A stretch of 64,000 nucleotides of DNA. Origin: Catajapyx aquilonaris (taxonomy: Eukaryota). Position 1 is the first letter of the stretch, and every line of letters starts with the position of its first letter. Positions 4,501-64,000 of this stretch are shown piece after piece. The stretch covers positions 1 to 64,000 of the forward strand of contig KZ538131.1 in NCBI GenBank assembly GCA_000934665.2, written 5' to 3'. The notes under the pieces are model-generated. The model saw nothing but the letters and a program-made list of their open reading frames with translations. It was not told where the DNA came from and ran no database searches. Made by a program: the position numbers and the translations under genes.

Positions 4501-7500
4501 GGCCCGCCCGCCTGGTTGTGCGGCTTTTCCTGACAACGACGCCTATGCCCACCTGCATGCTTCAAGATTCCGGTGCTGTACAGTATGTAAACGCATTCCT
4601 GGTGGTTTGACAGGAAATACTTAAAAGCGTCGCCCCGCCTTAACCTATCCGTTACTATTGCGAAAGTCAACATGTCCATATTCAAAAGTCCACAAGCCTT
4701 CCCCCACCACGGTTTTTGTTCGGGGAAAAAAATGCACCTTTCGAAACCCTTGACAGTTCATTCACCTCAGTAACACAGGTATAATTACCACATCATTGAC
4801 TCATCTTCACGCGGGGTGTCCAATAAATCCGTTCCTTCTCCATATTTGGTGAAAAAATGTCCGTGCAGCAGGCCACCTCACGCCTTTACTGTTGATTCAT
4901 ATATGTCCCCGTCCAAGCGTGACAGCAACTCGCTTACCGACCTAGTGACCGTGAAGAGTCCTGAAAATGAGCGCAGCTCCCGAAGCAGATATATCGGATC
5001 GAGGAGGAAGCTCGTGGTTTGTTTTTGATGCACTTGATGCTTGTCTTATGGCTCTTTCCACGCCACGCGATCTGGCCAACACAAAAGAGTGATTTATGAT
5101 GTAGGAGATGGCAGTTGGTTTACACCGCTTGAATGGCAATATTGATGAGTCAGACCTCAGGTGAGTGAACCTCTTCTTTGCTAGTTTTTTTTCCACCTGT
5201 CTTAATTGAAGAGAAACTATTCGTGCTGATGGATAGACTAAATGATCTGGGATCAAGGGCCAGGAGACGACGTCTAAGCTCATAATCGACAAGAAGCTGT
5301 GAGGAGTGGTACACTTTTGTGAGCTTCTTTTGCTTTTTATTCGTCACACTTTCTTGACGTAACCGAGTTCCTGGTTTCGGCTGATCTCGCCAATTGGCTG
5401 TGATGTTATTACCATGTGTACCATTTTCCCACGCGTCTTTCCATCCAACGGAACTTTTACATGTCCTACAAGTTGGAATAAATGGTTTTTGCGGCTGTTA
5501 AAAGTGTACCAGCAAGGCTACTGATCTACTTACGCTACCACCAACGCAATTACGTGCAGGGATAACAGATAATTTTCTTGGTATTCCTTACCCGTCCGGA
5601 TTGATAAATGCTTTTGGAACCAATAATTGAATAAAAACCTAACTGTGCGTGGATGTGGTCCCGTCGGGCAAGAAAGAGAAACATTAAATGGTTTCTTTGG
5701 TGCTGGGAGCAAGCGCCAGGAGGAAATCCAATCCTTTCCGAATCAACAATGGGGAATCTTTGTTGCCAAGAGGACACCACACGTGACAGTCACAGCAATT
5801 TTACAGTTCAGTACGCTGCTTATGAATACACCTCAGAAGTTGCAAATAACGGAGTGTCAGCAGGGAAATAATGCACCGTTTTGTAACAGGAGCACCGGAG
5901 GAGGCATTTTCAACCATCTGACGTGTTGGCAGCAATTTGTCACGAGCCATTAGGAATGGTACCATACTGTCTTGATGATAGTTTACCATGAAATTAGTGA
6001 TGATTTGACAAATTGCGTTATATTGCATGCTGCTCAGTTCTGGTAACTGCGCCAATCATCTTTTTTTTTATCCTGAGGGTTGTGGCAACTCAAGCGTGAG
6101 TTTAAAAATGCATTTCGCACATACAGTGTGAACACGGCTACCTACAAGCTCCTGGTCACGTTTTCCTCTTTAATGCACAACTGATTGTGTCCACGTGCTC
6201 CTTTATTGCCTTTCAAGTCCCTACAGCGATTTAAGGCAGTTCAGAAAGGTTAACCCTGCCATCCAAGAATTACACAATCACCTTCACAGAGGAACAGTAA
6301 ACGGTACTTTAAAACACCTAAAATATGTAAGCAATTTTGCCTCTACGCCGAACGGCAAATTAAAATGCCACTGAGTAAAAAGACGGCGTAAAAATGTGGC
6401 AGAATTTGATAGCGAAAGTGTCGTAATCATGACGTATGTGAAGTGGATCTAGTGAACGGTAAAACCTAAATTAGTTTATTAGTATGATAGTTAACGGAAA
6501 CTGTGCCAGCGGGAATGCCCACCTTCGTGAATTAGCCCTACTCGAGTATGCAGAATCCGCACCGGTTCACTAACGGCAAACAACGCGCAAGCATTCATTT
6601 GGTCTCCCATTATCATTTCGCTCCCCTCCTCATCTCTAAGCCCAGAATTAAATGGGAAAAATGCTACTTCTAAGACTTTTGCCGGCTCTACACTCACCGG
6701 AACACAGGTAATGAATTTCTTACCTGGCCATAGAAGAACAATGGGTACTTTTACTGCAGAATATCCTTGCCAAGGTCTTGCATCTACCTATTCTGCAGAC
6801 TACTAATTAGCTTATTAAATGGCAGCTGATGGTTAGATTAAACGCGCCCTACAGCTCCTCTGAAATAATTAAGGGGATTTTTAGGTATCACGAATGATGC
6901 CAGGTAATATTCAGGTTATCTACTTGCGTGACGAAGCGACTCGACATAGATCAGATCAGATTGTGTCAGTCATATCGGGTTATTCGGGCAACATCCGAAC
7001 CTCATAAAACCGCGCCTAAATGAACCGTTCAGTTAAGCTTGACCGATTCTGTCCATGCTGCCAGACAAAAGCACATCATCAATTATGTAATGAGCAGCAC
7101 AATGAGGATTCAAGATCGTGAACTCTTTATGGGCACAAACTAGGTCTGGCATATAAAAAACTCCTACCTGCCTATATCGCCTTAATTATCGCTAAATTAT
7201 TTGTAACAGGAGATTTTGAGTGATTAATGCCCCAGTCTAATCGACTAAACCGAGAGCAGTTGTTCATTAGTTTTTTCACTCATCAAAGTCTTGTTATCCT
7301 CTAATGTTTTTCTTCGAGAATACAAGTAGCACAGTCATGCTCTCATCATATCTCCATTTCTTGGCATACGTACACTTGTGGTTGAGACACGTAATACTAC
7401 TATTCATCCAGGCGCCGGTCCAGGCGGAGCAAATAAATAACTCATTGGCTTTAACTTCTTCACTTGTACGGTTAACAGTACTTCTGCACTGACCACTCCC

Positions 7501-18046: not shown

Positions 18047-18516
18047 CTGCGCCGGATTTACGGCAGGGCAACCTAGGCAGTTCCCTATGACGGCAGATTT
18101 CAAGGGGCGGCAAATTTAGGCATACAAAATAAGTAAACGAAGAATCTAATAAATAATTACGCGACTGGAAGTAGCGCCCGGATTTACCATTAAGCAGAGT
18201 AGGCAATTGTCTAGGAGCGGCCGCGAGTTGCAATAAATACAGTATTTTTCAAATAGGATATACAATAATATGAAATAAAGGCGAAATCATTTAAAAATCT
18301 TCGAAATTTTCACCGGTGGATTCCCAGCACCTGATTTGCCACTTGGCAGAAAAGCCTATATAAAAATTTTAATAAAATAAAATGAAATGAAGGAGAGAAC
18401 TCAAGAGAAAATGTGAAATTTTAAGAGGCATGGGGGGGGGGGGGNNNGGGGGGGGGGGGGCTGCCAACTGCCTAAGGGCGGCCGGGGTGGTAAATCCAAG
18501 GGTAAATCCGGCACTG
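18047..18516. mobile_element. hAT-type MITE with a nested or duplicated copy of its own ends
   Basis: Left TIR CTGCGCCGGATTTAC vs right GTAAATCCGGCACTG. The 8-bp flanks ATTATGAT / ATTATAAT match 7/8, and 8-bp TSDs are typical of hAT. A second internal TIR pair lies at ~18172 (TAGCGCCCGGATTTACC) and ~18489 (GGTAAATCC). Confidence 0.7.
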
Positions 18517-18761: not shown

Positions 18762-20376
18762 ATGACTGTTTTTCTTGCATCATTCTTGATCCTAATGGCG
18801 GTGGCAGTGCAGTCCCAAGTCATCCTAGAAGGTTCATGTCCATATGTACCCGTGCAGAAGCACTTCTCCACAGATAAGGTAAGGCCCAGTAAATAATTTT
18901 ATTAGGGATGTTTCATGTCTGCGGTATGACCAAAGGACTGCTCTTCACAGTCCCTCCCCATCCCGTTTCATAAGACCAAAAGTAACCCGACGAGCAAGGT
19001 CATCACGACTTCCATTACACATACAGTTCTGTTCGTGCTCCGTCATGACCTCCAAGCCGTAATTTCTGACAACTAAAATGTTTTTCACGACTACTGGTCT
19101 TAAGCTGCGGTCATCCGAGGCATCTTCCAGCGGAAGCCCATTTTTTTCTCCCCTTCCTTTGTCCATTACGATGGTTCCTCGATATTTGGTCAATGACCCC
19201 TCAGATTTTATTCTGAAAATTTTTCATGCACTATACGTGCCCAAGATGGAGCTGAAAACGTTGCAACAAAAGACCGCCGTCAATGTAAAAGAAATGAATG
19301 ATGCTCGGCGTGCAGGACATTGTGTTGGCCACAACCTCTCCTTATTCGGCTTTCGGCTCTTTCTGACTTCCTCGTCTGCATTTTTCGCTGCAGGGTAAAC
19401 CAGTCTCTAGAAACCTTACACCGAATGTGAATTATACCTACGCACAGTACACCGGAATCTTTATTTGCTGTTTTAAAGACATGTACCGCAAGTACAGGAC
19501 TGGAAGGGAAAAGCACGCAGTTTTTTTCTTCTTCTTCTTCTTGTTGTTGAGCGCACAACTTTACCACCTCTGTGGTACAGGATCTCACTCAGCGTTATCT
19601 GATTCCCTCTGTAATTTGTTGCAGTTTTTGGGCACCTGGTACGAATACGAACGATTTTATTCGGACTCCCAAGTGAACAGTAAGTGCACCAAGTTGGAAT
19701 TTGCTCGACATTACGACGGCCGGGTCAACATCATCAGCAGCTCCATTCATGAACGGTGAGGTTAACATTATATGCAACAAGGAAAATTCTAATTACGGAA
19801 TATTTTATATTTTCAGGACTGGGCGTCCTTTGGTTTCTCATGGTGTAGTGACATCTGACTACAGTGACCTGTCGCGAATGACCGTCCAGATGGCTCCACG
19901 ATCAAGTTCTCCCTCCCCGTTAGTGTATCCATATTGGGTCCTGGACACAGATTATATCACATATGCTGTGGTTTTCTCCTGTGAAGATGTCTGCCGTGGA
20001 TCTAAGCATACAGGTAAGTTAGAAAGAAGCCACTTTGCTAATGAAATAATCTCTAATTATGTTGACATAATTATTGCAGAATCGCTATGGCTCTTGGGAA
20101 GAACCGCTGTCATCCCTGACGAGGCTCTTCGTCGCATATATCGTAAACTGGCTGGATTTGGAATTAATTCCAAGAGGCTCATGAAGGTACAGACGTAAGG
20201 CATTCATTAGTTTAACCGGATAATATCATTGCATTTAATTTCAGGTGGAGCAAAAGCAGTGTGTGAATGTAGCCGTGAGGGTCAGGAGCCAGAACTCGTA
20301 TTTCAACTTCAATCGAAATGCTGCCAGAAATTTTCTCGTGTCACTCACCAATCACCTGAATGATCGTTCTTCATGA
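18762..20376 (+). CDS. Apolipoprotein D-like lipocalin (ApoD/Lazarillo group), ~227 aa. Coding exons 18762-18878, 19625-19755, 19817-20013, 20080-20186, 20245-20376
   Basis: All four introns are GT-AG with consistent phases (0,2,1,0). The spliced protein has a signal peptide MTVFLASFLILMAVAVQS, then QVILEGSCP, SCR1 F...KFLGTWYEYERF, KCT, SCR2 YWVLDTDYITYAVVFSC, SCR3 SLWLLGRT and a terminal VEQKQC, i.e. the ApoD four-Cys pattern. An acceptor TTTTCTTTTCACAG ends 5 nt before the ATG, implying an upstream non-coding exon. Confidence 0.93.
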
Positions 20377-23400: not shown

Positions 23401-24207
23401 TGCAGCACGACGTTGCCGGCAAAATGACTGTAGAACGCCAATTTTGAAATAATTAACATGGAAATGGCTTGTCCATGCGATAAATATCGGTCCGATATAA
23501 ATTCCCCCTACTCTCAGTTGCGTTCCTGTACCTATATGTCCACTTTGTCGCTACCAAGATACGGTATCACAATAAGGCCACTAGCCGAATATGGCCGCCG
23601 CGCACAATTTTGAACCTAACACCGCGCACAAGTTGAACCCCCTCCACACTTGGCACTCCAACATCAATAAAACGGTCCGCCATACCCCGCTAATCAGACA
23701 GGCTGGAAGTGCGGTCCTCCCAAAATCGGGGTATCCCCCCATACCTGTTCATAGTTAGCATCGTTGTCATCATAGTCCAAAATAGTGTAAGAATTGGTGC
23801 GGTAGATTGCAACTGGGTGCCGACCGTGTCACCTCCTAGTGGCCGTCCCCAGAAGGCGGCCAACAGATTGTAGTACCCAGAAGGCCGTGCGGTGAAGGTC
23901 GCCATGTTTCTTTGGACTAGAGTGGGGAGGAAGGGGAGGAGAGGTTTGGCCGAGTGCTAGTGTGTTCTTTCGGTGTAGTCCCTGCTGCACCCTCCCTCCC
24001 GCTCTCCTTCGCTCCTTTTCCCATTCGCACCCGGCGGGCGGCCCTGACTGCCGCCTCACGAAGGGGGGAACGGGAATGGGGGCCGACATTATTAGCTTCC
24101 CTGATAGGTGACTGCACGTCACACTTAGGTTTAAACAGGGGGAATAGAGGGGGCTCAATTGGTATTCGAACTGTTCGAAGACCCCACAATTTTGGTGTGG
24201 ACGTAAT

Positions 24208-25778
24208 ATGGCCGACGCGGTGAACGAGAAGCAAAAATTCTTGGAGAAAAGGTCGCTCCCCAACGTGATCCACCGTACCACCACAGAGACACTTCGGCTA
24301 GATACGGAGAAGATGCCAGGCAGTGCTGGCACTGTGTCTCCTTCGCAGTCTGCAACAGTGGTGAAAAAGAAAAGCACGTCGTTTCAGATCACCAGCGTGA
24401 CCAGCGTACCTGGTGGCGACACGGCTGACGACTCGGACCTGGACGACTCGCACACTGATGACATCTCGGAGGACTTGGCTGATACGTGCTCCAGGATGAC
24501 TGACACGCCCAGCTACAGCGAGGATCCGGCAGGTCCCAACTCCAGCTACAACGACGTGTTCTTTAACCCAGCGCCTAGTTCAGTGCCTGTGGGAACGGCC
24601 CCTGTCATTCCTACCAGCTCGCAGTATGGGCTGGCAATTGTGGCGGATGCCTCGGCAGCTTCGCAACCTGCGGCTGCAGCGGCTGCAGCGACGGTGGCTC
24701 CCGTGGCCCCCATCTCCCATGAGACTAGCAAGTGTGAAGAACGTGACCATGTACACAACAGGTTTAAAGTAGTGAAGATAGAGAGTACGGAACCCTTTAA
24801 GAGGGGCAGGTGGCTGTGTATGGATTATTTGGACCATACTGTTAAGGAAGAGCCGTCGCAACACCCGCCGGCCAATACCCCAGGTGCAATTCATTTGCCC
24901 ATACCCGAAGGTGGAGGTGAGGATGCTGTTTCTATGGACCAAGTTGTGGTTAGTGTACCCCAGCCGCAGCCGCAAATGTACGGCCAGCAGACGCAATCGT
25001 TGCCGCATCCAGTCCCGACCCAATACTACTCACAGGGCCACTCGCTTCAGGGTGATCCACCGATGCAGTACGTGACTGGACAGAGCCAACGGTTTGTCAG
25101 TCAGCCAGGGTTCGTTGCAGCCACGAGCCAACCGCAGTCGCAGCCCCAGACGTACACTCAGCCGCAGTACGTGCCAACGCAGAACCAGAATTACTTCCCC
25201 AACCAGCAGCAACTCCAACCACAAACGTATGTGACAGGTCAGAGTCAGAACCTTCCGAACTTCCAGCCTCAAGTATCACAACCTCAGCCTACACAACAGC
25301 AGCCAAAGTCTCAGGTTGCCACCCAGACCATCCCGCCGCAGACAATGATGCACATGCAGCAAGCAACACACATGGCTCCACAACCAGGCATGGTACCCCA
25401 ACAACCTGCACACATGCCAATACAGACCATTCCACCGGGATATATGCAGCAACCCCAGCCACGACCGCAGCCGCCGGCGACTTATGCAGCGACACAGCCA
25501 GTGACAGTGTCGGTGCCAGTTCGCGCACCTATGGCTCCGCAAGTGGTGGATGCAATGAGTGTGAGTGTAGCAAGTAGTGTGGGTGCGGGCGGAGGGGGCA
25601 GTAGTGCAGGTGGAGCGGGAGGTGGGGGAGGGAGTGGAGGCGGACTGGAGAATTTGGTGGGCGCCCAGCAGCAGCCCTCAGATATGATGCGGCCACCTAA
25701 CGCACTTTTGGACTCTTTGGTAGAGGTGGCCACAGCGGCCACTGAGGATGTTCAGCCAGTCCCAGAAGAATCCGAAAG
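24208..25778 (+). CDS. bun: First coding exon of the long isoform of a TSC22-domain family protein (bunched A / TSC22D1-2-4 long-type). Partial: the TSC-box and leucine-zipper exons were not found in the window
   Basis: 523-codon ORF with long-isoform motif 1 (KKKSTSFQITSVT, 24364-24402) and motif 2 (RFKVVKIESTEPFKRGRWLCMDYLDH, from 24760), followed by a Q/P-rich low-complexity region. It ends ...EESE-AG|GTAAAA (phase-2 donor at 25779), where family members splice to the SG.S.VAIDNKIEQAMDLVK exon. Confidence 0.93.
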
Positions 25779-27207
25779 GTAAAATTAATATTTTGTGTAT
25801 GTTTCATGTCAGGTACTTCATTATGAAGATGATATTTTTCAAATTTACAACTCACTGCATGTAAATCTGAGTCTGTTATTTTGCACTGAATGTTACACTT
25901 GGTAAATTTTGCGAAGCACTGCACGATTTACCTTCCCCACCAGCTTGAGAGACCAAGGGTACATTTCATCATAATCATACTGTTGGTGGTGGTGTTACTA
26001 TTATAATAATTTCACACCTCTTGATGTGGTTACTTTCAACCATGGATGTTTCTTTTGCCATAGGCAATGTTATACTGTTGAAACATGTAGGTTCCACCAC
26101 TGGTGACACCATCTCTCAACCAGTAGGTCTCGCTTGGGTAAAGCGAACAAGATGACTGAGTCACCAGAAACCACTTGTGCACAAGCTAGTTTCTTGTGTG
26201 GAAAGAGCAGGTCATCGACCCCTATCACCTTTACCCACCTCAGCATTACTAACCTTCTGCCCTCTGTGCAAGTATTACAGCTTCATAACTGATGGCCAGT
26301 GGATATTAATGTAAATGTAATTGACCATATTCGGGAATTATTTTCTGTATTGAAAAGGTTCACCTACTTTCTGGTGGTAAGGGTGCTGCGGCTGTGCTGC
26401 AGCATAGCAAGGTTATAAATTTGCCAATTTAATGTGAATGACAATAATTTTAAACAACATAATAATCAGACAATTGCAGGTGGAAACACCTGACTTCTGT
26501 TTTTAGTATGACCATTGTTCTCAGAAGCCAGTTAATGACACTGTCTCATAGGTCATCTATCTCATCATACTTCATTGCATTCATTATTTCACTGACATGA
26601 AGATAGAACAATAAACCTAGATAAGTGGAGGAAGTTCCTTCTTTTTATTGTCAGTTTCATTGTCAATTAATACTTCAAATGGACTGTCTCATATTGCAGC
26701 TGATAACTTGGCCATGCAGTAATTGCAGTCACAGCAGCAGCCATGTTTCATTTTAGATCAGTCTTCTTATGTCAGACATCAGGAAGTTTCGTGAAAGTAT
26801 GTGGCTTTTTAACAATGCAATGGTAACTGGCGATTGACAAAAACTTAAATATGTGGATAGAAAAATCTAAAAAATGAGGCATTTATTCCTGTTGATAGAA
26901 AGGCTTCAACCTCTGCTATGAACCCAGGCATTTCATATTTATAGGCAAGGAATATCATTTGTCTGGCATTCTCTTGAATAGAATGTTAGACACTAACTAC
27001 CCAGGGGAATGCACAAAATCATGGTTTTGGTATAGCCCACTTGCATGACTGTGTTTATGTGCATGAGTACTTGCACCTCCCATCCCAGTTACTCTTCCCT
27101 CATTGTTACCTACTGGTTACAGAAATATACAAAAGTGCAATTAAACTATACAAAGTATCCAGGAACCTCACAAGGTAGTGCTTTGATGAAGATGATGCGT
27201 TAAATAA

Positions 27208-27580
27208 TGTTGTGGCTAAAAAGTCGCGCATCAATGGGGAGGGTTATGATTTGCTTTGTGACAGTGTTTTGTCTTTCCACAGGTGAACCATGTTGACCAC
27301 TGATGAGCATGTGGAACTCGTTCTCGTCTGTGGACGCAATGGCTACACCCACTGTGGTCTTGAATCTGCTCATGGTGCTTTGCACTATGGGCTCTTTCTA
27401 CGGGTGCCTTCAATTAAAATCCTCCATGACGTCTCTGTGGGTGTAGGCTTCACGTCACAGAGGAGAATGAGTTCCAAACACTCATCAGTAGTCAACTAGG
27501 TTCACCTGCGGAAAGATAAAACACCATGACGAAGCGTATCACAGACCTCCCCATTGATGCGGGACTTTTTGGCCACCCTG
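27208..27580. mobile_element. Foldback derivative of a Tc1/mariner-superfamily transposon (5' end duplicated in inverted orientation)
   Basis: 27212-27352 is the degenerate reverse complement of 27436-27576 (~140-bp arms). The right end reads GGCCACCCTG (CAGGGTGGCC-type TIR). The left arm contains the start of a transposase-like N-terminus, MLTTDEHVELVLVCG, at 27290. Confidence 0.75.
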
Positions 27581-27732
27581 CATGTTACAAGGCTCCAATA
27601 TGTCTTTGGAAGACTGATGATAGCAGATGATAGTCTCTACTCCAAGGGGATACGCTGGTATGCCAGTGTACACTACGACTGGTATGCGCAAGTATGCCAG
27701 GTATATGATCAGGTTTTTGAAATTCAGACTTA

Positions 27733-27913
27733 AGGCTCATTAACACAGGCCGTCGACGGTTTTGGTTTTAGTTCTCGTCGACGCCGCAGACCAATCAGAG
27801 CGGGCCCTCACGGTAACCATGACGCGTTGTTTACGTGAGGGCCCGCTCTGATTGGTCCGCGGTGTCGACGAGAACTAAAACCAAAACCGTCGACGGCCTC
27901 TGTGAATGCGCCT
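27733..27913. mobile_element. PIF/Harbinger (Tourist-like) palindromic MITE with TTA TSD
   Basis: TTA at 27730-32 and 27914-16. Ends are AGGCTCATT.../...AATGCGCCT. The internal arms 27747-27812 and 27834-27899 are reverse complements with only 2 mismatches. Confidence 0.9.
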
Positions 27914-28294
27914 TTATGTCACCAATGTTATCATTGCTCAGCAAGTGGCAGTAACAATGGTAACTTCGGTGATGTCAATCCAAACTGGAACAAATTGGAA
28001 TACATAAGGTATGCTGCTATGCAGGTGTACACTAATAGACGAGTGAGTATCCCCTCACTCTGCTCTAATATGAATGTGCTTTGCAGTAGGACCTAGGATG
28101 CATGCAAGACCGAGGATCTACACGTGTTGTATCTTAGACATTACGGGATTTTTGGTTAACGTGTTGGAACCTTGTAACATGTCTCTCATCATACCTATCT
28201 GGCTGTAACAATGCCTGTGTTCTCTTGGAAAATTTCTATAGATTTTTGCAAGAATGTTGACTGTTGTAAACAAGACTTTATAGTGTTATTTAAA

Positions 28295-28550: not shown

Positions 28551-28606
<56 letters not shown>
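28295..28606 (+). mobile_element. Full-length tRNA-derived SINE with a V-domain-like core and (TTA)n tail
   Basis: Pol III A box TGGCGGAGTGG (28308-28318) and B box GTTCGATCC (28353-28361). Core GTTCTCTCCGTGTTCTCGTGGGTTTTCTCGGGGTTCTCCCGTTTCCTCCCAC resembles the V-SINE conserved domain. Perfect 17-bp TSD TTATAGTGTTATTTAAA at 28278-28294 and 28607-28623. Confidence 0.92.

Positions 28607-28611
<5 letters not shown>

Positions 28612-52892: not shown

Positions 52893-52895
<3 letters not shown>

Positions 52896-52944
<49 letters not shown>
52896..52944. repeat. (AG)n microsatellite, ~24 units
   Basis: Read directly. Confidence 0.97.
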
Positions 52945-56800: not shown

Positions 56801-59800
56801 ATAGCTGGAGTTAGTACAGTAGTTCCTTTTTTCCGTTTCATGCGATTGATGATGCCTTTTCTAGTTCATAATTTATCATATGTGCTATTATACGCGTAAT
56901 TAGTATTGATGCACATGATAAAAGCCTGGGAACGTGTCATTATACACATATTTGAGGGTTTATTAAATCAATAAATATTCGGCGTGCGTGATTTTATGAC
57001 GTTTACGATACACGTTAGTGGAATAGGAGCAGCTTTGCACGAACGTATGGCTTCTTAGCATGCACCCGCCGAACGTTTCACCGACCAAGACACTCCGGCC
57101 GAGTGACCATTTGAGGTGGTGATGTGGACTCGACCGCGACCTAACATGAGGCGCCGGAGATGAAACATGTCTGTGAGAGTAATAGACATGAAGGTGAACG
57201 GCCCTGGAGCACGTAGGGTGGGTCATGGTTTCATATCGCTGCAGTCGATACACGTCATCTGGAGGCCGGAAAGCCGCGGCAGGGACTCCATTGCGGGATA
57301 CCAGGACCGTGTCGAGCATGCCTTTTGTCCCTATACATCGCTGTCAGTTTTTGACATTTAGCAGGGGTTTGCATGGGCTTGCTATGGAATTCCGGCCGGT
57401 GCATTGGTTTGCACAGGCACCGGCAGGCGGCACCATGCTTTCAAATTGGACTATGATGATAATTATAGTCGGTGGAGAATAGAATGCGGGCTGCCTAGGG
57501 CAGGGCTTGTTCTGCAGTGATGAACTTTGAGCAAGGGATGGCTTGCAGGTGGATGCGAGTGTATTACCCTCGTCATTTCATAACGATTTGACGGAGCCAC
57601 TGCGCTAGTTTGGTGGGGGCGCGCCAATTGCCTCCGTGCAACCTTGCAGGTACGGGGAAAAAACATCCAAGGTGGAAAGAAAATCGACGCCACTGAAATT
57701 ATTATCGGAGTGCACGGCGCTACGCAGTTGATGAGGCAATTGGCGGGGGATAATAGTTCCGCCTGTTTTTATTTACCCGCATCTAGACCCAAGGCCAAAG
57801 ACGGGTTTCAGGAAGTGTTGGGATATTTGAGGGGTGCCTTGCGCGAAAGTTTGGAAATAATTAGGCCAGAAGTGTTGAATCCGACGGGGCTGCATATCTT
57901 GGGGTTGCTGATATAGGATGATAGATTGCTAGGTAACTGATGATTACTGGCTGGGTTGACGCGTTGGATCACATGGCTGAGCTGGCGACGGATTGAGCCG
58001 GCGCTCGCCAGAGGCCTGCACAGTTCAGTGCCTTGTATTTAGTACAGGGTAGATCAATACATGTATCCAATGAGGGAGAAGGGGATGGGGGGGNNNNNNG
58101 GGGGGGAAAGGAACCTCTGTCAATTATCGAACAGGAATTCCTGATTTGATGTGACTTTGACGGGATGAAATGATACTGCGGCCCTCAATTGTTGAAACGC
58201 TAATGTGCCACCAAAAGCCAAAATTTTTCAAATGTGTGTGGCGATCTGAACTGTTGGCTACTAAGGTGCTGTATATCTAACGATTTTCATTGCGTTGTTT
58301 TGCACACGTTCAACTCTTGTATTCGATAAGATGTAAATTGAAGGTTATACACGCAGGGGGGACCTTTCCAGCGTCATCTGTAGTTGCAACGGTGAAGGAG
58401 CGATTATCTCGCGCTAGATGGCGGACAAGCCCATTTTAATGCCTCTTAGCAAACCTCCGCCATCTATCGTAGAGGAAAGACGTGAAGGAATGCTGTGTTG
58501 AAACGCTAGGCGGCTAGATGGCAGGGGAGGGCATTTGTCAAACCATGGATGAAAAGCAGCCACCTGTCGCAGCCTTTTGGCGAGAAGAATATTGAGTTGA
58601 AATGTTAGGTGGCGTTGCTAGTTCTGTGTAGTAGTTCTAGATAGAGCCGCTATGTGTCGCTAATTTTGCGAATATGCCCTGTTTGTAAATCCCTACTGCA
58701 GATGGAGTTACTGCGGAATATAGAGTAAGTGCCAGGGCTAAATGTCATTCTTTTACCTCTGCTTTTGCACCAATAAAATAATTACAATGAAGATTTTGGT
58801 TAGACCCGTATGTACCCATTTTATATATGGATGGGCCTTACTTGGAGATACATGAAATTTCCCACCTACTTGTTTGCACATTTTTTTTTCAATAATAAGC
58901 TGTCCCAACGTGTGACCCTCATCCAGGATGCGAAAAATTGTGCCGAGGTCATTAGTGAGACCTGGGCCACATTTTGAGGTACAAACCACCGAGATAGTTA
59001 TATGGTTGGCGGTTCTGGGGGTGTAATCGTAGAGGATCTGAGGATAGCGCGTGCAGCGAGGATGTTTGCCAGCCGAAGATTATGAAAGTAGACCGAATTT
59101 AGATACGCGCGTATATTGAAGCTTTCATTGTGGATTCGGTAAGAGCATTTCGCAACTCTTATTTTGCAGATGGCTAATTTTAAATGACCATGAAACACAG
59201 GTGAGGTGTGGCTATTTTTGACAGCTGTTGTCACCTCACTTGATCCAAGTTGTATCTCATCTTGTTGGCACAGAGGCACCGCCGCGCCGGACAACTCTAA
59301 AATTGCTTAGAAATAGTGCCTGGTAATGGAACTTTCGATCAGGAAAATAGGTCAGGTATTAGGCGAAGAAGTGGTTCCATTCATGGGACCAGGCAGGGGC
59401 CAATTGATGAATGAAGAATTCATGGAATTGACCAGTGCATTGGATTGCGGTTTATATGGTGACCCAGTTGGAAGTATGAGGGCGCCAGGCGGTCTGAAGC
59501 GGCTTCTCAGCCATGTTTTGTTGCGGCGTGAACGGTGCCCTGGAGGCTATTTGGCTGACTCGTATAGCCTTTCCCCTTTTTCTCGGGGATTCTATGCACT
59601 TACGTAATTCGTCTGTATGCTTGACAGGGTTGGCGCATGTGTGTGCGAGTACATATCAACTTTGACGCTAGATTACAGTGTAATTGCACATAAATCCAAG
59701 CGGCTGAATGAGCTGTGTTGAATTAAGCATGAGTTAGATTGTACAACAACAAGGATTTATTGGGATAAAAAAAATTAATTGTTAAGGTTGACTGTAGGGT

Positions 59801-62800
59801 GAATAATTGGCGCGTGATACGGTCACCGAGTTTAGTGCGGGTCATCCGGTGCGTTCTGCGTAGTCGGTCTAACTAAATTGATGATGTCATGGAGACGCTA
59901 GTGATGGTTATTATAGGGCATTCGCATATAACCTGTAGCACGAGACGCAATGTTCAACCAGTCCCATTGTGCGCAAACGTTTATTACATTTTTTTGTTCA
60001 GACTGATGCGTGACATGTAACTTAATGATGCATTGCATTCGTGTCAATCAAATGGCGCCTTACATAATGACGTCAATATAAGGTTTTCATCCAGGACTTT
60101 GACTGGTACCGTACAAGTTTACCTGATGGCGATCTCCCAAATCATGCTCCATTAATCATAAATTTTGCAGCGCTATATTATGGCAATTGAGCGGCTCGTC
60201 GCGAGCGAAATAGGTAGTTACGTAAACCTCGTGCCCTTCATTCGTCCCTGTCGGAGTTCATCGCCTTGACAGAAGCCGGCTTATTACGCAGTTTTTCACT
60301 ACCACCTCTGTTTGCCCATAATGGTCCCCACCCTTCTGGACTAGCCCGTATATTTCGACTCAAACTGCGACCCATGCTCGGCGGTATTGCAGTACACATA
60401 TAATGAATTCTAAAGAAAATGGTCGGTCAACATCACGAACTCCGTCTAAGCGTGGCTAATTGTTGGGAAAATCCGCTCATGTCGATTCAGCGAACGTATT
60501 ATGAAATATGGGGGTGGAGGGATAGGTAACAATGCTACGCCAGACAGGCAGCGCGCGATGTTCATAGCGTGAGAATTGCAAGGAAATCGATTACTGCACA
60601 TTGAGGAATGGCAAGTAAAGGTGATATCAATGGGACTCAATTGCGACGCGGACGCGTTACCGTTAATGACGTTTCCAGACCAGGAAGTGCGTGCCGGAGA
60701 AGCCAAAATCGATGGTTAATTTGCCGAAGGAGGTCATCTCTGCCGATCAAAAATTGTTGGCGGCGTCCTGAATGGGTGAATATTTCCACCCATCCACTCA
60801 CCTTCCTTGCATTCAATCCGTGTGTATAGGGTGGAGAGGGGTTCATGAAGGGGGGTAGTTTTCAGGTGAGGTTGTTGGCCTTCGTAAGCCCGCCCACAGG
60901 AGATAAGGCGGGGCCAAACAGCTGGTAGCAGAGTTTTGTTTGAGCTTTGCAAGTTTCCACACGGGGAGGGGGGGGGGGGGNNNNNNNNNNNNNGTTCAGG
61001 CAGGGAAATTAATGTGGTTTTGTGGAATGAATTTGCTGTTGGAATAAAGCTGAATTAGCGACGTATCACTTGCGGCTATTATTAATTGCATCAATTTGTG
61101 ACCGGATATTGTCCTGTAGGTATTATTGGATGAACTCGTAACATTTTGCTAAGCACATCCTGCTAGTAGGAGAAAATAGCTTCATGTATGCAACCAAGGC
61201 GGATCAATCCATTCATATGGGATGGCGTGCCCTAGGCCATGTACAGTGGTGACATTTCACCAGGCGATTTTTTTTCTTGTACTTCGATTAGTTAGAATTC
61301 TTGTCAAGTGCATGTTTGTGCTGTGTCCAGTGATCTCTATACTATGCACTGGAATGAGCATGGCAATATGTTCCATTGTCTTGGGTGGCCATATTGGGAC
61401 ATCAGAATAGTATCGATTGTCCACTACGTGATCAATATTGCGCATGTGTTTTTGTTGTTGTTTTTTTTTACTTTTTACTTTTGTTCTCGTTTTACATAAG
61501 CATATATTGTAAATTGTAGAATTTGTAAAAAGAGAACAAATAGTGTTTGTGATTGATACCGGTTGTTGACACAGTATTGACGAAACAAATCACATCGCAT
61601 GTAAAAACAAACAAACAAACAAACAATAACCTTATTGCCACATTCAGAACTGCTCGCGATAAATAGCGCTTAAAATAGCGAGTTTGGTGTCCCAAAAATG
61701 GTGCGGGAGGACGAAAAAATTATAGTATCGATCGCGACAATCCGCAGCCCAGTGTATATAGTAGAGATCAGTGGCTGCGTCTCAGCCCGCTGCAATACCC
61801 TGTTATGTCATCCCCCTTCGTTAGTCATTCACCGGTGTGGGCCTGCACTGTTTGTGTAACTTATAGGACGTTAATGAGAAAAGCAACAGAGCTTGAACTG
61901 GCGCGTGGTTCCATATTAAAGAGTGAATTATATTGGCTAATTAGCCAAGTATATCATAAAGGGTTTTTTGCTCTGTTAACCTCTGCCACGTGACACTCAC
62001 CATCATAATGAATTCAAACAAGTACAAGCTAAAATAGTGAACTAAGTGATTGGTTTTGCATGGACTACGTCAGTGTAAAAGAGACAAACGCAGAAGCTCG
62101 CCCGAGAGCACATGGTGGTTCATGATTAAGACGTCTTTTACGGATGCCATAAAAGCTGGTGAGGCTTAGCTGCCCAGGTGAGAGAAGGATAAACCTCATT
62201 TTCCAGCTGACGCGAGTTATCTACCGGCTGGGATAACACGTTACATTTCTCCACGATTATAGTTTTAAGCCTGTAGCTATTCATTTGGGAATAGAATTTG
62301 ATTCGAGTAATACGCCATTCTTGTGATTAGGAATTAATGGAATGTGAGGCAGCTCACTGATGAATGGACGTGAATAAAACAGAATGCCAAGGAATGGCAA
62401 GTTACTGGAGTTAGTGTAATAGGGCAAATGGGAAATTAATGGTTGAAATGAACAGGATGAATGTTGAAATTCAGGTGGATGGGATTGTTCTTTTTACGTG
62501 GACCATCACAACTTTCAGTGGAACTTGTCCTAAATCATGTCAAATGTAAACTGAGTTTTGCCCTATGTATTTCCGGTAAATTCCGGAAATCCGCGTATGA
62601 AACTCGCAATTTTTCAATCTTCCTATTCAAAATACCCACAGGATAACGCCAGTAACATTTTGACAATTTTTATATATTTTTTCCAGCAATATAAAATAAC
62701 GTGCCAGTTTTAGAGTTGCACATTTTTGTACTAAAAGTGGTATTTAATAGAATAAACTGTTTTGCAGTACAGGCTGATACCTTCAAATGGCTTTTGATAT

Positions 62801-63092: not shown

Positions 63093-63325
63093 AATGGGAA
63101 ATGAATGGAAATGAATGAGGAATAAACACTGGCTAACATACTGTACAATTCAGAATGGATTTGATCACGAATGGAGACGAATGAGAAGTGAACGGTGAAT
63201 GGAACCAAATTGAATTGACACGAATTGAAGTGAATGGTGAATGACAGTGAAGCGAAAGGGAAGGAAATTGAATTGGATGCTGACAATGGATGTTGAATTG
63301 AATGGGCACAAGAATTGAAAGGAAT
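63093..63325 (+). repeat. Degenerate (GAATG/GAATT)-rich low-complexity tract
   Basis: Many TGAATG/GAATTG words with a strong G/A strand bias. A weaker tract lies at ~62330-62480. Confidence 0.75.
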
Positions 63326-63518
63326 ATCATACATAAGGTTTTAATATATACTTACACCATTTTAAGATTTTGAAGAGTTTTGCAGTGAATGGTATCCATC
63401 TCTGCCTCCAAGCGGTCCACACTACCTATGTAATAATATTCCTAAATGGGATCATATGATATTGTACTGACAATTGTTACAATTTCCAAGTACGAGTTTT
63501 ATTCACCATGAACATTGT

Positions 63519-63608
63519 CTAATTGTTTCTCTCTCTCTCTCTTTCCAGGTAAGAGATGCTTTTATCTACGGTCTCAGTTCCGAGTACCAATGCCAGGCGA
63601 CGGTGAGT
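63519..63608 (+). promoter_or_regulatory. Candidate recursive splice site (ratchet point) with a 54-nt cryptic RS-exon (63549-63602)
   Basis: Branch point CTAAT (63519-23), a 21-nt pure pyrimidine tract, CAG|GTAAGA at 63548/63549, and a downstream donor ACG|GTGAGT at 63602/63603. Confidence 0.7.
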
Positions 63609-64000
63609 TTCAGCTTACTTTCCTAAGAAAAAAAGCCTTTGCCAGCAGCCGCGGCAAAAGACAAAGGCAAGTCGTATTGGGTACCATGGCGTGACATGCA
63701 GCTACCAGGACTTGTCCGTCGGCTATAGGGTTGCGAATCTCCAAAACGGTGCATGCGTCTCCGACCCTTCCCCAGCGCGCAGATATACTGGAAATAAACT
63801 ACAAAATGGGTCAGCTTCTGAGAAGCCCCCGACTTAAAAGTCATGTCCCCTAAATAGGGTTTGGACCCGGATGTCCTAATTGTGTCCTTCCCCCAGACAG
63901 CATGTCGCTCTTAAAAATCGTCGCCAGAGACGTCGAGGAGATATAAATACAACGTGGGGCACTGGCGCCTGATGCTCCTCCGGTGGCGCCATCGTCTGGT

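Follow-up and report, generated by a model that had tools for sequence, protein, structure and literature searches.

Deep in a very long intron, a strong 3′ splice site directly adjoins a 5′ splice site, and a second donor follows a short distance downstream. The question that this locus raises is whether such an arrangement serves as a recursive splice site, through which the intron leaves in steps, and whether the short exon between the two donors has any role of its own. We addressed it within the 64,000-nucleotide stretch of DNA analysed here (the window).

The original prediction described a very strong 3′ splice site abutting GTAAGA about 37.8 kb into the intron, with another strong donor exactly 54 nt downstream. 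Both descriptions are base-exact. The junction lies at 63548|63549 on the sense strand, 37,770 nt into the intron, and the downstream donor is CG|GTGAGT. The features of 63519-63608 are the following:

63519-63523, + strand: CTAAT branch-point-like motif, its A 26 nt 5′ of the AG
63526-63546, + strand: pyrimidine tract TTTCTCTCTCTCTCTCTTTCC, 21 nt, uninterrupted and (TC)n-rich (TTTC, TC repeat, TTTCC)
63547-63548, + strand: AG acceptor, directly 3′ of the pyrimidine tract
63549-63554, + strand: candidate ratchet-point donor GTAAGA, adjoining the AG at 63548
63549-63602, + strand: putative cryptic RS-exon of 54 nt, read in the exon-1 frame as R and then stop
63603-63608, + strand: RS-exon donor ACG|GTGAGT, with its GT at 63603

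Branch points follow a YTRAY-type consensus, and CTAAT is the one match to it within 63480-63548. The acceptor carries TT at -5/-6 (TTTCCAG|G), and the juxtaposition of acceptor and donor that characterizes a Drosophila-type ratchet point is present at 63548|63549. When all GTs in 63549-63800 were scanned, GTGAGT at 63603 was the sole strong donor; the next best, at +132, has a U1 duplex energy of -5.3 kcal/mol. The 54-nt length of the RS-exon follows from the positions of the donor GTs at 63549 and 63603.

The host gene and the reading frame that enters the intron are set by the upstream coding exon. Three features are needed here:

24208-25778, + strand: exon 1, predicted to open the coding sequence of the bunched/TSC22 long isoform; spans ATG to donor and ends in phase 2 (AG|)
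25779-25784, + strand: exon-1 donor AAG|GTAAAA, weak at +5 and +6
25779-63548, + strand: proposed first recursive segment, 37,770 nt

Exon 1 lies in an open frame at 24148-25782 (+) with its ATG at 24208; the exon product has 523 residues, and the exon's 3′ end reads ...GAATCCGAAAG at 25778, followed by GTAAAA. Homologues of this product number 87 longer proteins and 313 of similar length. Most named entries are "protein bunched, class 2/F/G isoform", and their sources are insects, springtails and a lobster; identity is around 40-50% across the query's N-terminal 40-70%. The protein collection searched contained no near-identical sequence. Using tblastn, 12 of 12 bun proteins match 24208-24930 with E values of 1e-28 to 1e-38, which bears out the earlier naming of the gene. 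Its predicted status as the orthologue of the bunched long isoform is supported.

The end of exon 1 (PNALLDSLVEVATAATEDVQP) aligns to residues 845-864 of a 966-residue bun protein from a termite, where the TSC box follows directly. Accordingly, the donor at 25778 is at the expected place. The motif ALLDSLVEV...EDVQP (25693-25778) is common to termite, ant and planthopper bun proteins, again just before the TSC box, and the position of the intron is therefore conserved. Pfam reports no family on the exon-1 product, as expected since the TSC box sits in later exons. The sequence itself is distant from those sampled: in a 23-row tree of the N-terminal region, the window protein occupies a long branch outside every sampled order; the description of the source as a non-model arthropod was a fair one.

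Next, we looked for the far end of the intron. A TSC-box exon upstream of 63519 had been named in advance as an observation that would speak against recursive splicing at this site. The TSC box is absent from the whole window, both by tblastn with the 12 bun proteins and by a six-frame fuzzy scan with three TSC-box motifs. The intron therefore extends beyond 64000, which makes it longer than 38.2 kb, and the next real exon, a small TSC-box exon of about 51 nt, is expected beyond the window. A tblastn match at 5202-5249 to the leucine-zipper part of bun (8/16 identities, E around 3) was judged to be due to chance.

Base composition changes along the window. Over 25779-64000 the GC skew is +0.104 and the AT skew -0.040, compared to -0.036 and +0.011 over 1-24000, and GC skew is positive in 17 of the 18 2-kb bins from 28001 onward. 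This sustained excess of G over C and T over A fits one long transcription unit on the + strand, provided that the asymmetry is linked to transcription, as we infer. Upstream of bun, an open frame at 19677-20195 (+) contains a lipocalin-like stretch, YPYWVLDTDYITYAVVFSCEDV, with a Pfam Lipocalin match at E 0.0012 (19.5 bits, cut-off 23); an apolipoprotein-D-like gene may have one of its exons here.

What would splicing to 63549 do to the transcript? Because AG forms the first two bases of a codon at the end of exon 1, the join reads AGG TAA. Inclusion of the RS-exon would, as originally claimed, bring an immediate in-frame stop, with the TAA at 63550-63552. The exon is non-coding in the exon-1 frame and its 54 nt are a multiple of 3. 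This stop is automatic, since a GTAAG ratchet point gives xxG TAA in a phase-2 intron; it is therefore a by-product of the consensus and no sign of design. For this reason the further claim of a poison-exon switch acting on the long isoform does not carry over: the sequence gives no indication of it.

Ligation of exon 1 to 63549 would recreate AAG|GTAAGA, which matches CAG|GTAAGT at 7 of 9 positions with a U1 duplex energy of -9.5 kcal/mol, compared to 6 of 9 and -6.8 kcal/mol for the original exon-1 donor. The regenerated donor is accordingly the closer of the two to consensus, in agreement with the original prediction. The RS-exon donor ACG|GTGAGT has 6 of 9 consensus matches and -9.4 kcal/mol. 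On U1 pairing, a crude proxy of donor strength, the two competing donors are about equal (-9.5 vs -9.4 kcal/mol), and whether the exon would be skipped or included is therefore not predictable from this proxy.

To what extent could such a layout arise by chance? The window has 548 AGGT positions (272 on the + and 276 on the - strand). With a loose threshold (at least 15 of 20 upstream pyrimidines and at least 5 of 6 matches to GTAAGT), 1 of the 548 passes, and it is the candidate site, with 19/20 pyrimidines and a 5/6 donor match. A site passing this threshold was also found in 175 of 1000 (17.5%) third-order Markov simulations of the 38-kb intron part and in one of the two non-biological orientations of the window. 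By the loose threshold alone, the site is not remarkable. Its pyrimidine content is another matter: 19/20 was reached in none of the 1000 Markov simulations of the intron part.

We also defined a strict pattern, YYYYYYYYYYYYNYAGGTRAGW, which combines twelve pyrimidines with NYAG|GTRAGW and allows at most one mismatch. It has a single match in the window on either strand compared to 0.06 expected, and 6 of 100 shuffles contained at least one match. Shuffling destroys microsatellites, so real 12-pyrimidine runs were counted too: they occupy 101 positions on the + strand and 236 on the - strand, giving expectations of 0.003 and 0.007, respectively. The window shows no enrichment of GTRAGT (54 occurrences vs 54.9 expected). 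The + strand of the intron part has 13 of them, and the chance of one falling 20-100 nt downstream of the site is 0.027.

Within the intron span, a relaxed threshold gave 9 sites on the + strand vs 5 on the - strand, no clear excess on the sense strand, and the 37.8 kb upstream of the site hold no second strong ratchet-point candidate. For one intron taken singly, the joint layout goes well beyond what chance would give. It would not do so if very many windows were scanned; a layout of this kind is expected somewhere among hundreds of thousands of windows, and context therefore matters.

The site is single-copy in the window: self-BLAST of 63300-64000 returned (GA)n/(CT)n matches only, and a repeat search of the window found no repeat family covering the site. 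A transposon origin was considered and set aside as far as proteins encoded in the window are concerned: of the 46 intron ORFs with 90 aa or more, none attains the Pfam cut-off and one has a sub-threshold match attributed to chance. A non-autonomous repeat with copies elsewhere in the genome would still be compatible with these results. No Rfam family reaches its gathering score anywhere in the window. In a metagenome scan, a 27-nt exact pattern across the site had 0 matches, and the 114 pattern matches to the exon-1 protein yielded 0 confirmed by tblastn.

Several other features of the surroundings were recorded. G+C steps up from about 0.34 (63251-63500) to 0.48-0.53 (63501-64000), with a CpG observed/expected ratio of 0.85-0.91; this step near the site may mark the edge of a repeat or some other element. 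CT tracts of the type seen at the site have a reverse-strand counterpart in a (GA)n run at 52895-52944, and long (ATT)n microsatellites occur at about 310-395 and 28552-28610. Early in the intron, within 27212-27914, are two hairpin-forming, MITE-like inverted repeats (spans 27212-27576 and 27732-27914), one with 121-nt arms that are 83% complementary and 123 nt apart, the other with 86-nt arms that are 92% complementary and 11 nt apart. The window has 29 N bases in ten short runs, none of them near the site (627, 3733, 18445-18447, 29940, 40799, 42037, 50183, 50482, 58094-58099 and 60981-60993).

Taking the layout and its context together, we consider it somewhat probable that the site is a Drosophila-type intronic ratchet point, used constitutively, with a cryptic 54-nt RS-exon in a bunched/TSC22 intron of more than 38 kb. 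According to this model, CTAAT, the 21-nt CU tract and the AG at 63548 would be recognised as a 3′ splice site, with the GTGAGT donor 54 nt downstream aiding recognition of the acceptor by exon definition. Exon 1 would then be joined from its donor at 25778|25779 to 63549, and 37.8 kb would leave as the first lariat. The junction would recreate AAG|GTAAGA, stronger than the original donor, and this donor would pair with the next acceptor past the window, which could belong to a further ratchet point or to the small TSC-box exon. As the regenerated donor would remove the remaining intron, the 54-nt exon would leave no trace in the mRNA. Should the donor at 63603 be used instead, the mRNA would keep the 54 nt and stop at once (AG|G TAA); such a transcript would arise by error or in minor amounts and would probably be degraded. 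Several points count against a ratchet point. Loose-threshold sites arise readily in null sequence, and a (TC)n microsatellite tract can arise neutrally. At 37.8 kb, the first segment would be some four times as long as the mean fly segment (9.1 kb), and it has no second strong candidate inside it. The regenerated and RS-exon donors are nearly equal, where in flies the ratchet-point donor generally has the advantage.

A neutral origin of the tract is part of one competing account, in which a (TC)n microsatellite happens to end in CAG beside GTAAGA, with a fortuitous GTGAGT nearby, and the spliceosome either ignores the site or uses it as splicing noise. The frequency of loose-threshold sites in null sequence, the lack of GTRAGT enrichment and the lack of sense-strand excess among weaker AG|GT candidates all favour this account, as does the fact that the site was chosen by eye among very many windows, where rare chance layouts will appear. 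Nevertheless, the strict motif is expected only 0.003-0.06 times per window, the additional downstream donor has a chance of about 0.03, and CTAAT at -26 and TT at -5/-6 are there as well. The site also lies on the sense strand, in the type of intron and in the very gene that are recursively spliced in flies, and a 3′ splice site this strong would hardly be ignored wholly in a transcribed intron. On balance, we regard chance juxtaposition as rather unlikely. An ordinary 54-nt exon, cassette or untranslated and spliced once, would dispense with recursion altogether. It might be, for example, a 5′-UTR exon of a short bun isoform made from an intronic promoter, its GTAAGA start being fortuitous. 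A strong acceptor and a strong donor 54 nt apart delimit a normal microexon, homologue names attest several classes of bun isoform, and an in-frame stop would be harmless in a 5′ UTR. Yet a near-consensus donor hexamer at the very start of an exon would, going by base frequencies, be a coincidence of around 1 in 1000, 63549-63602 cannot code in the long-isoform frame, and no internal first exon is known upstream. Such an exon would moreover be compatible with recursive use of the site by the long isoform. We give this account little credence.

The remaining alternative accepts the ratchet point and adds regulation: a controlled choice between the regenerated donor and the one at 63603 would, on inclusion of the exon with its TAA, turn down the long Bunched isoform. 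The CUCUCU-type tract resembles what we take to be binding sites of PTB-type repressors, which would favour such control. The near-equality of the two donors leaves the outcome unfixed by donor strength, but U1 pairing energy measures that strength crudely, and the stop that would make the exon a poison exon comes automatically with GTAAG in a phase-2 intron. Elsewhere, vertebrate RS-exons with premature stops have been proposed to form a "binary splicing switch" (Sibley 2015, as summarized in the available part of PMC5126111), and the available part of PMC8605326 describes some fly RS-exons as expressed. The latter source nonetheless sets fewer than 50 expressed RS-exons against more than 500 intronic ratchet points in flies, with the cryptic ones constitutively skipped. 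Regulated use of this kind appears improbable. A recursive splice site with an RS-exon, counting the constitutive and the regulated readings together, is plausible, and a degree more probable than constitutive use taken by itself.

If the site is used, the orthologue of a gene known to be recursively spliced in the fly would have a recursive splice site in an arthropod far from Drosophila as well, and this would hint that the ratcheting of long introns has stayed with this gene across deep divergence. A bolder extension would hold that stepwise removal of a giant intron before the TSC-box exons is ancient in bunched/TSC22 and shared with flies, and that the near-equal donors and the CUCUCU-type tract here mark a regulated decision between a productive long isoform and a decay-prone terminated transcript; we consider that combination improbable. 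The site offers a concrete test case in a large-genome arthropod, a setting in which recursive splicing is barely documented. No concept is changed by it: layout and mechanism are already on record from flies, and so is even the host gene.

The closest known counterparts are the Drosophila ratchet points with cryptic RS-exons (Burnette 2005; Duff 2015; Joseph, Kondo & Lai 2018; Pai 2018; Joseph 2021). In the available part of PMC8605326, fly cryptic RS-exons are short (around 50 nt), have a downstream donor and non-coding content, are generally out of frame, and are recognised and then skipped, the ratchet-point donor being generally the stronger. The available part of the Duff preprint reports TT at -5/-6 in 196 of 197 fly ratchet points, along with a prominent pyrimidine tract. 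According to the part of PMC6110457 available, 63% of fly introns longer than 40 kb have a high-confidence recursive site, and the mean segment is 9.1 kb. The candidate shares with these sites a strong 3′ splice site abutting a GTAAG-type donor, the TT at -5/-6, a location far inside a very long intron on the sense strand, a downstream donor and a non-coding exon of about 50 nt, as well as a regenerated donor that would improve on that of the upstream exon. The recursive-splicing architecture that the original prediction recognised here therefore equals the one set out in PMC8605326, in which a ratchet point is followed by a cryptic RS-exon around 50 nt long. The differences are that the candidate is known from sequence alone and in a distant arthropod, that its first segment would be 37.8 kb compared to the fly mean, and that its tract is a CT microsatellite whereas fly tracts are T-rich. 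In addition, its two donors are nearly matched in strength, whereas in flies the one at the ratchet point clearly outranks the other, and its exon is a multiple of three in length yet stopped in frame.

The gene itself provides a second comparison. The supplementary tables of PMC6110457 (Pai et al. 2018) list D. melanogaster FBgn0259176 as recursively spliced, and the reagent table in the available part of PMC7550192 identifies FBgn0259176 as bun; the host gene is therefore already known as a recursive-splicing gene in flies. The segment lengths come from file 5, part 2 (PMC6110457), with all 7 rows for bun taken into account. A 59-kb intron with four recursive sites is divided into segments of 16,098, 13,505, 11,001, 10,810 and 7,694 nt, and a 19-kb intron with one recursive site into segments of 8,697 and 10,194 nt (PMC6110457). 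The two introns are listed 51-52 nt apart (PMC6110457), a gap that would fit the small conserved TSC-box exon, likewise the next exon expected here. Fly site motifs, as given in two of the five file 1 rows for bun, are TTTGCAG|GTGAGT and TTTGCAG|GTAAGC (PMC6110457). Fly and window genes belong to the same family, and the long introns are removed stepwise in the fly. The fly motifs share only the consensus with the site at 63549, and we make no claim of positional orthology.

More distant systems illustrate what the short exon could do and how such sites have been supported. Vertebrate RS-exons likewise carry premature stops (Sibley 2015, per the available part of PMC5126111); their inclusion is documented by RNA, whereas inclusion of the present exon is a hypothesis and its stop simply follows from intron phase. 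Locust NPF1 (available part of PMC8892266) resembles the present case in that a recursive site was predicted from its motif within a very long intron, again in an arthropod outside Drosophila, and differs in having some experimental support, from U2AF65 RNA immunoprecipitation, where the present site is a prediction from motifs. It was the sole case of arthropod recursive splicing outside Drosophila found in our literature search, which was not exhaustive. Finally, the Ubx microexons mI and mII (Hatton 1998) start with GTAAGA, as the available part of the Duff preprint notes. Like the candidate they are short (51 nt in Ubx), with either the regenerated or the downstream donor usable. Unlike it they are coding and expressed, whereas inclusion of the 54-nt exon in the bunched intron is hypothetical.
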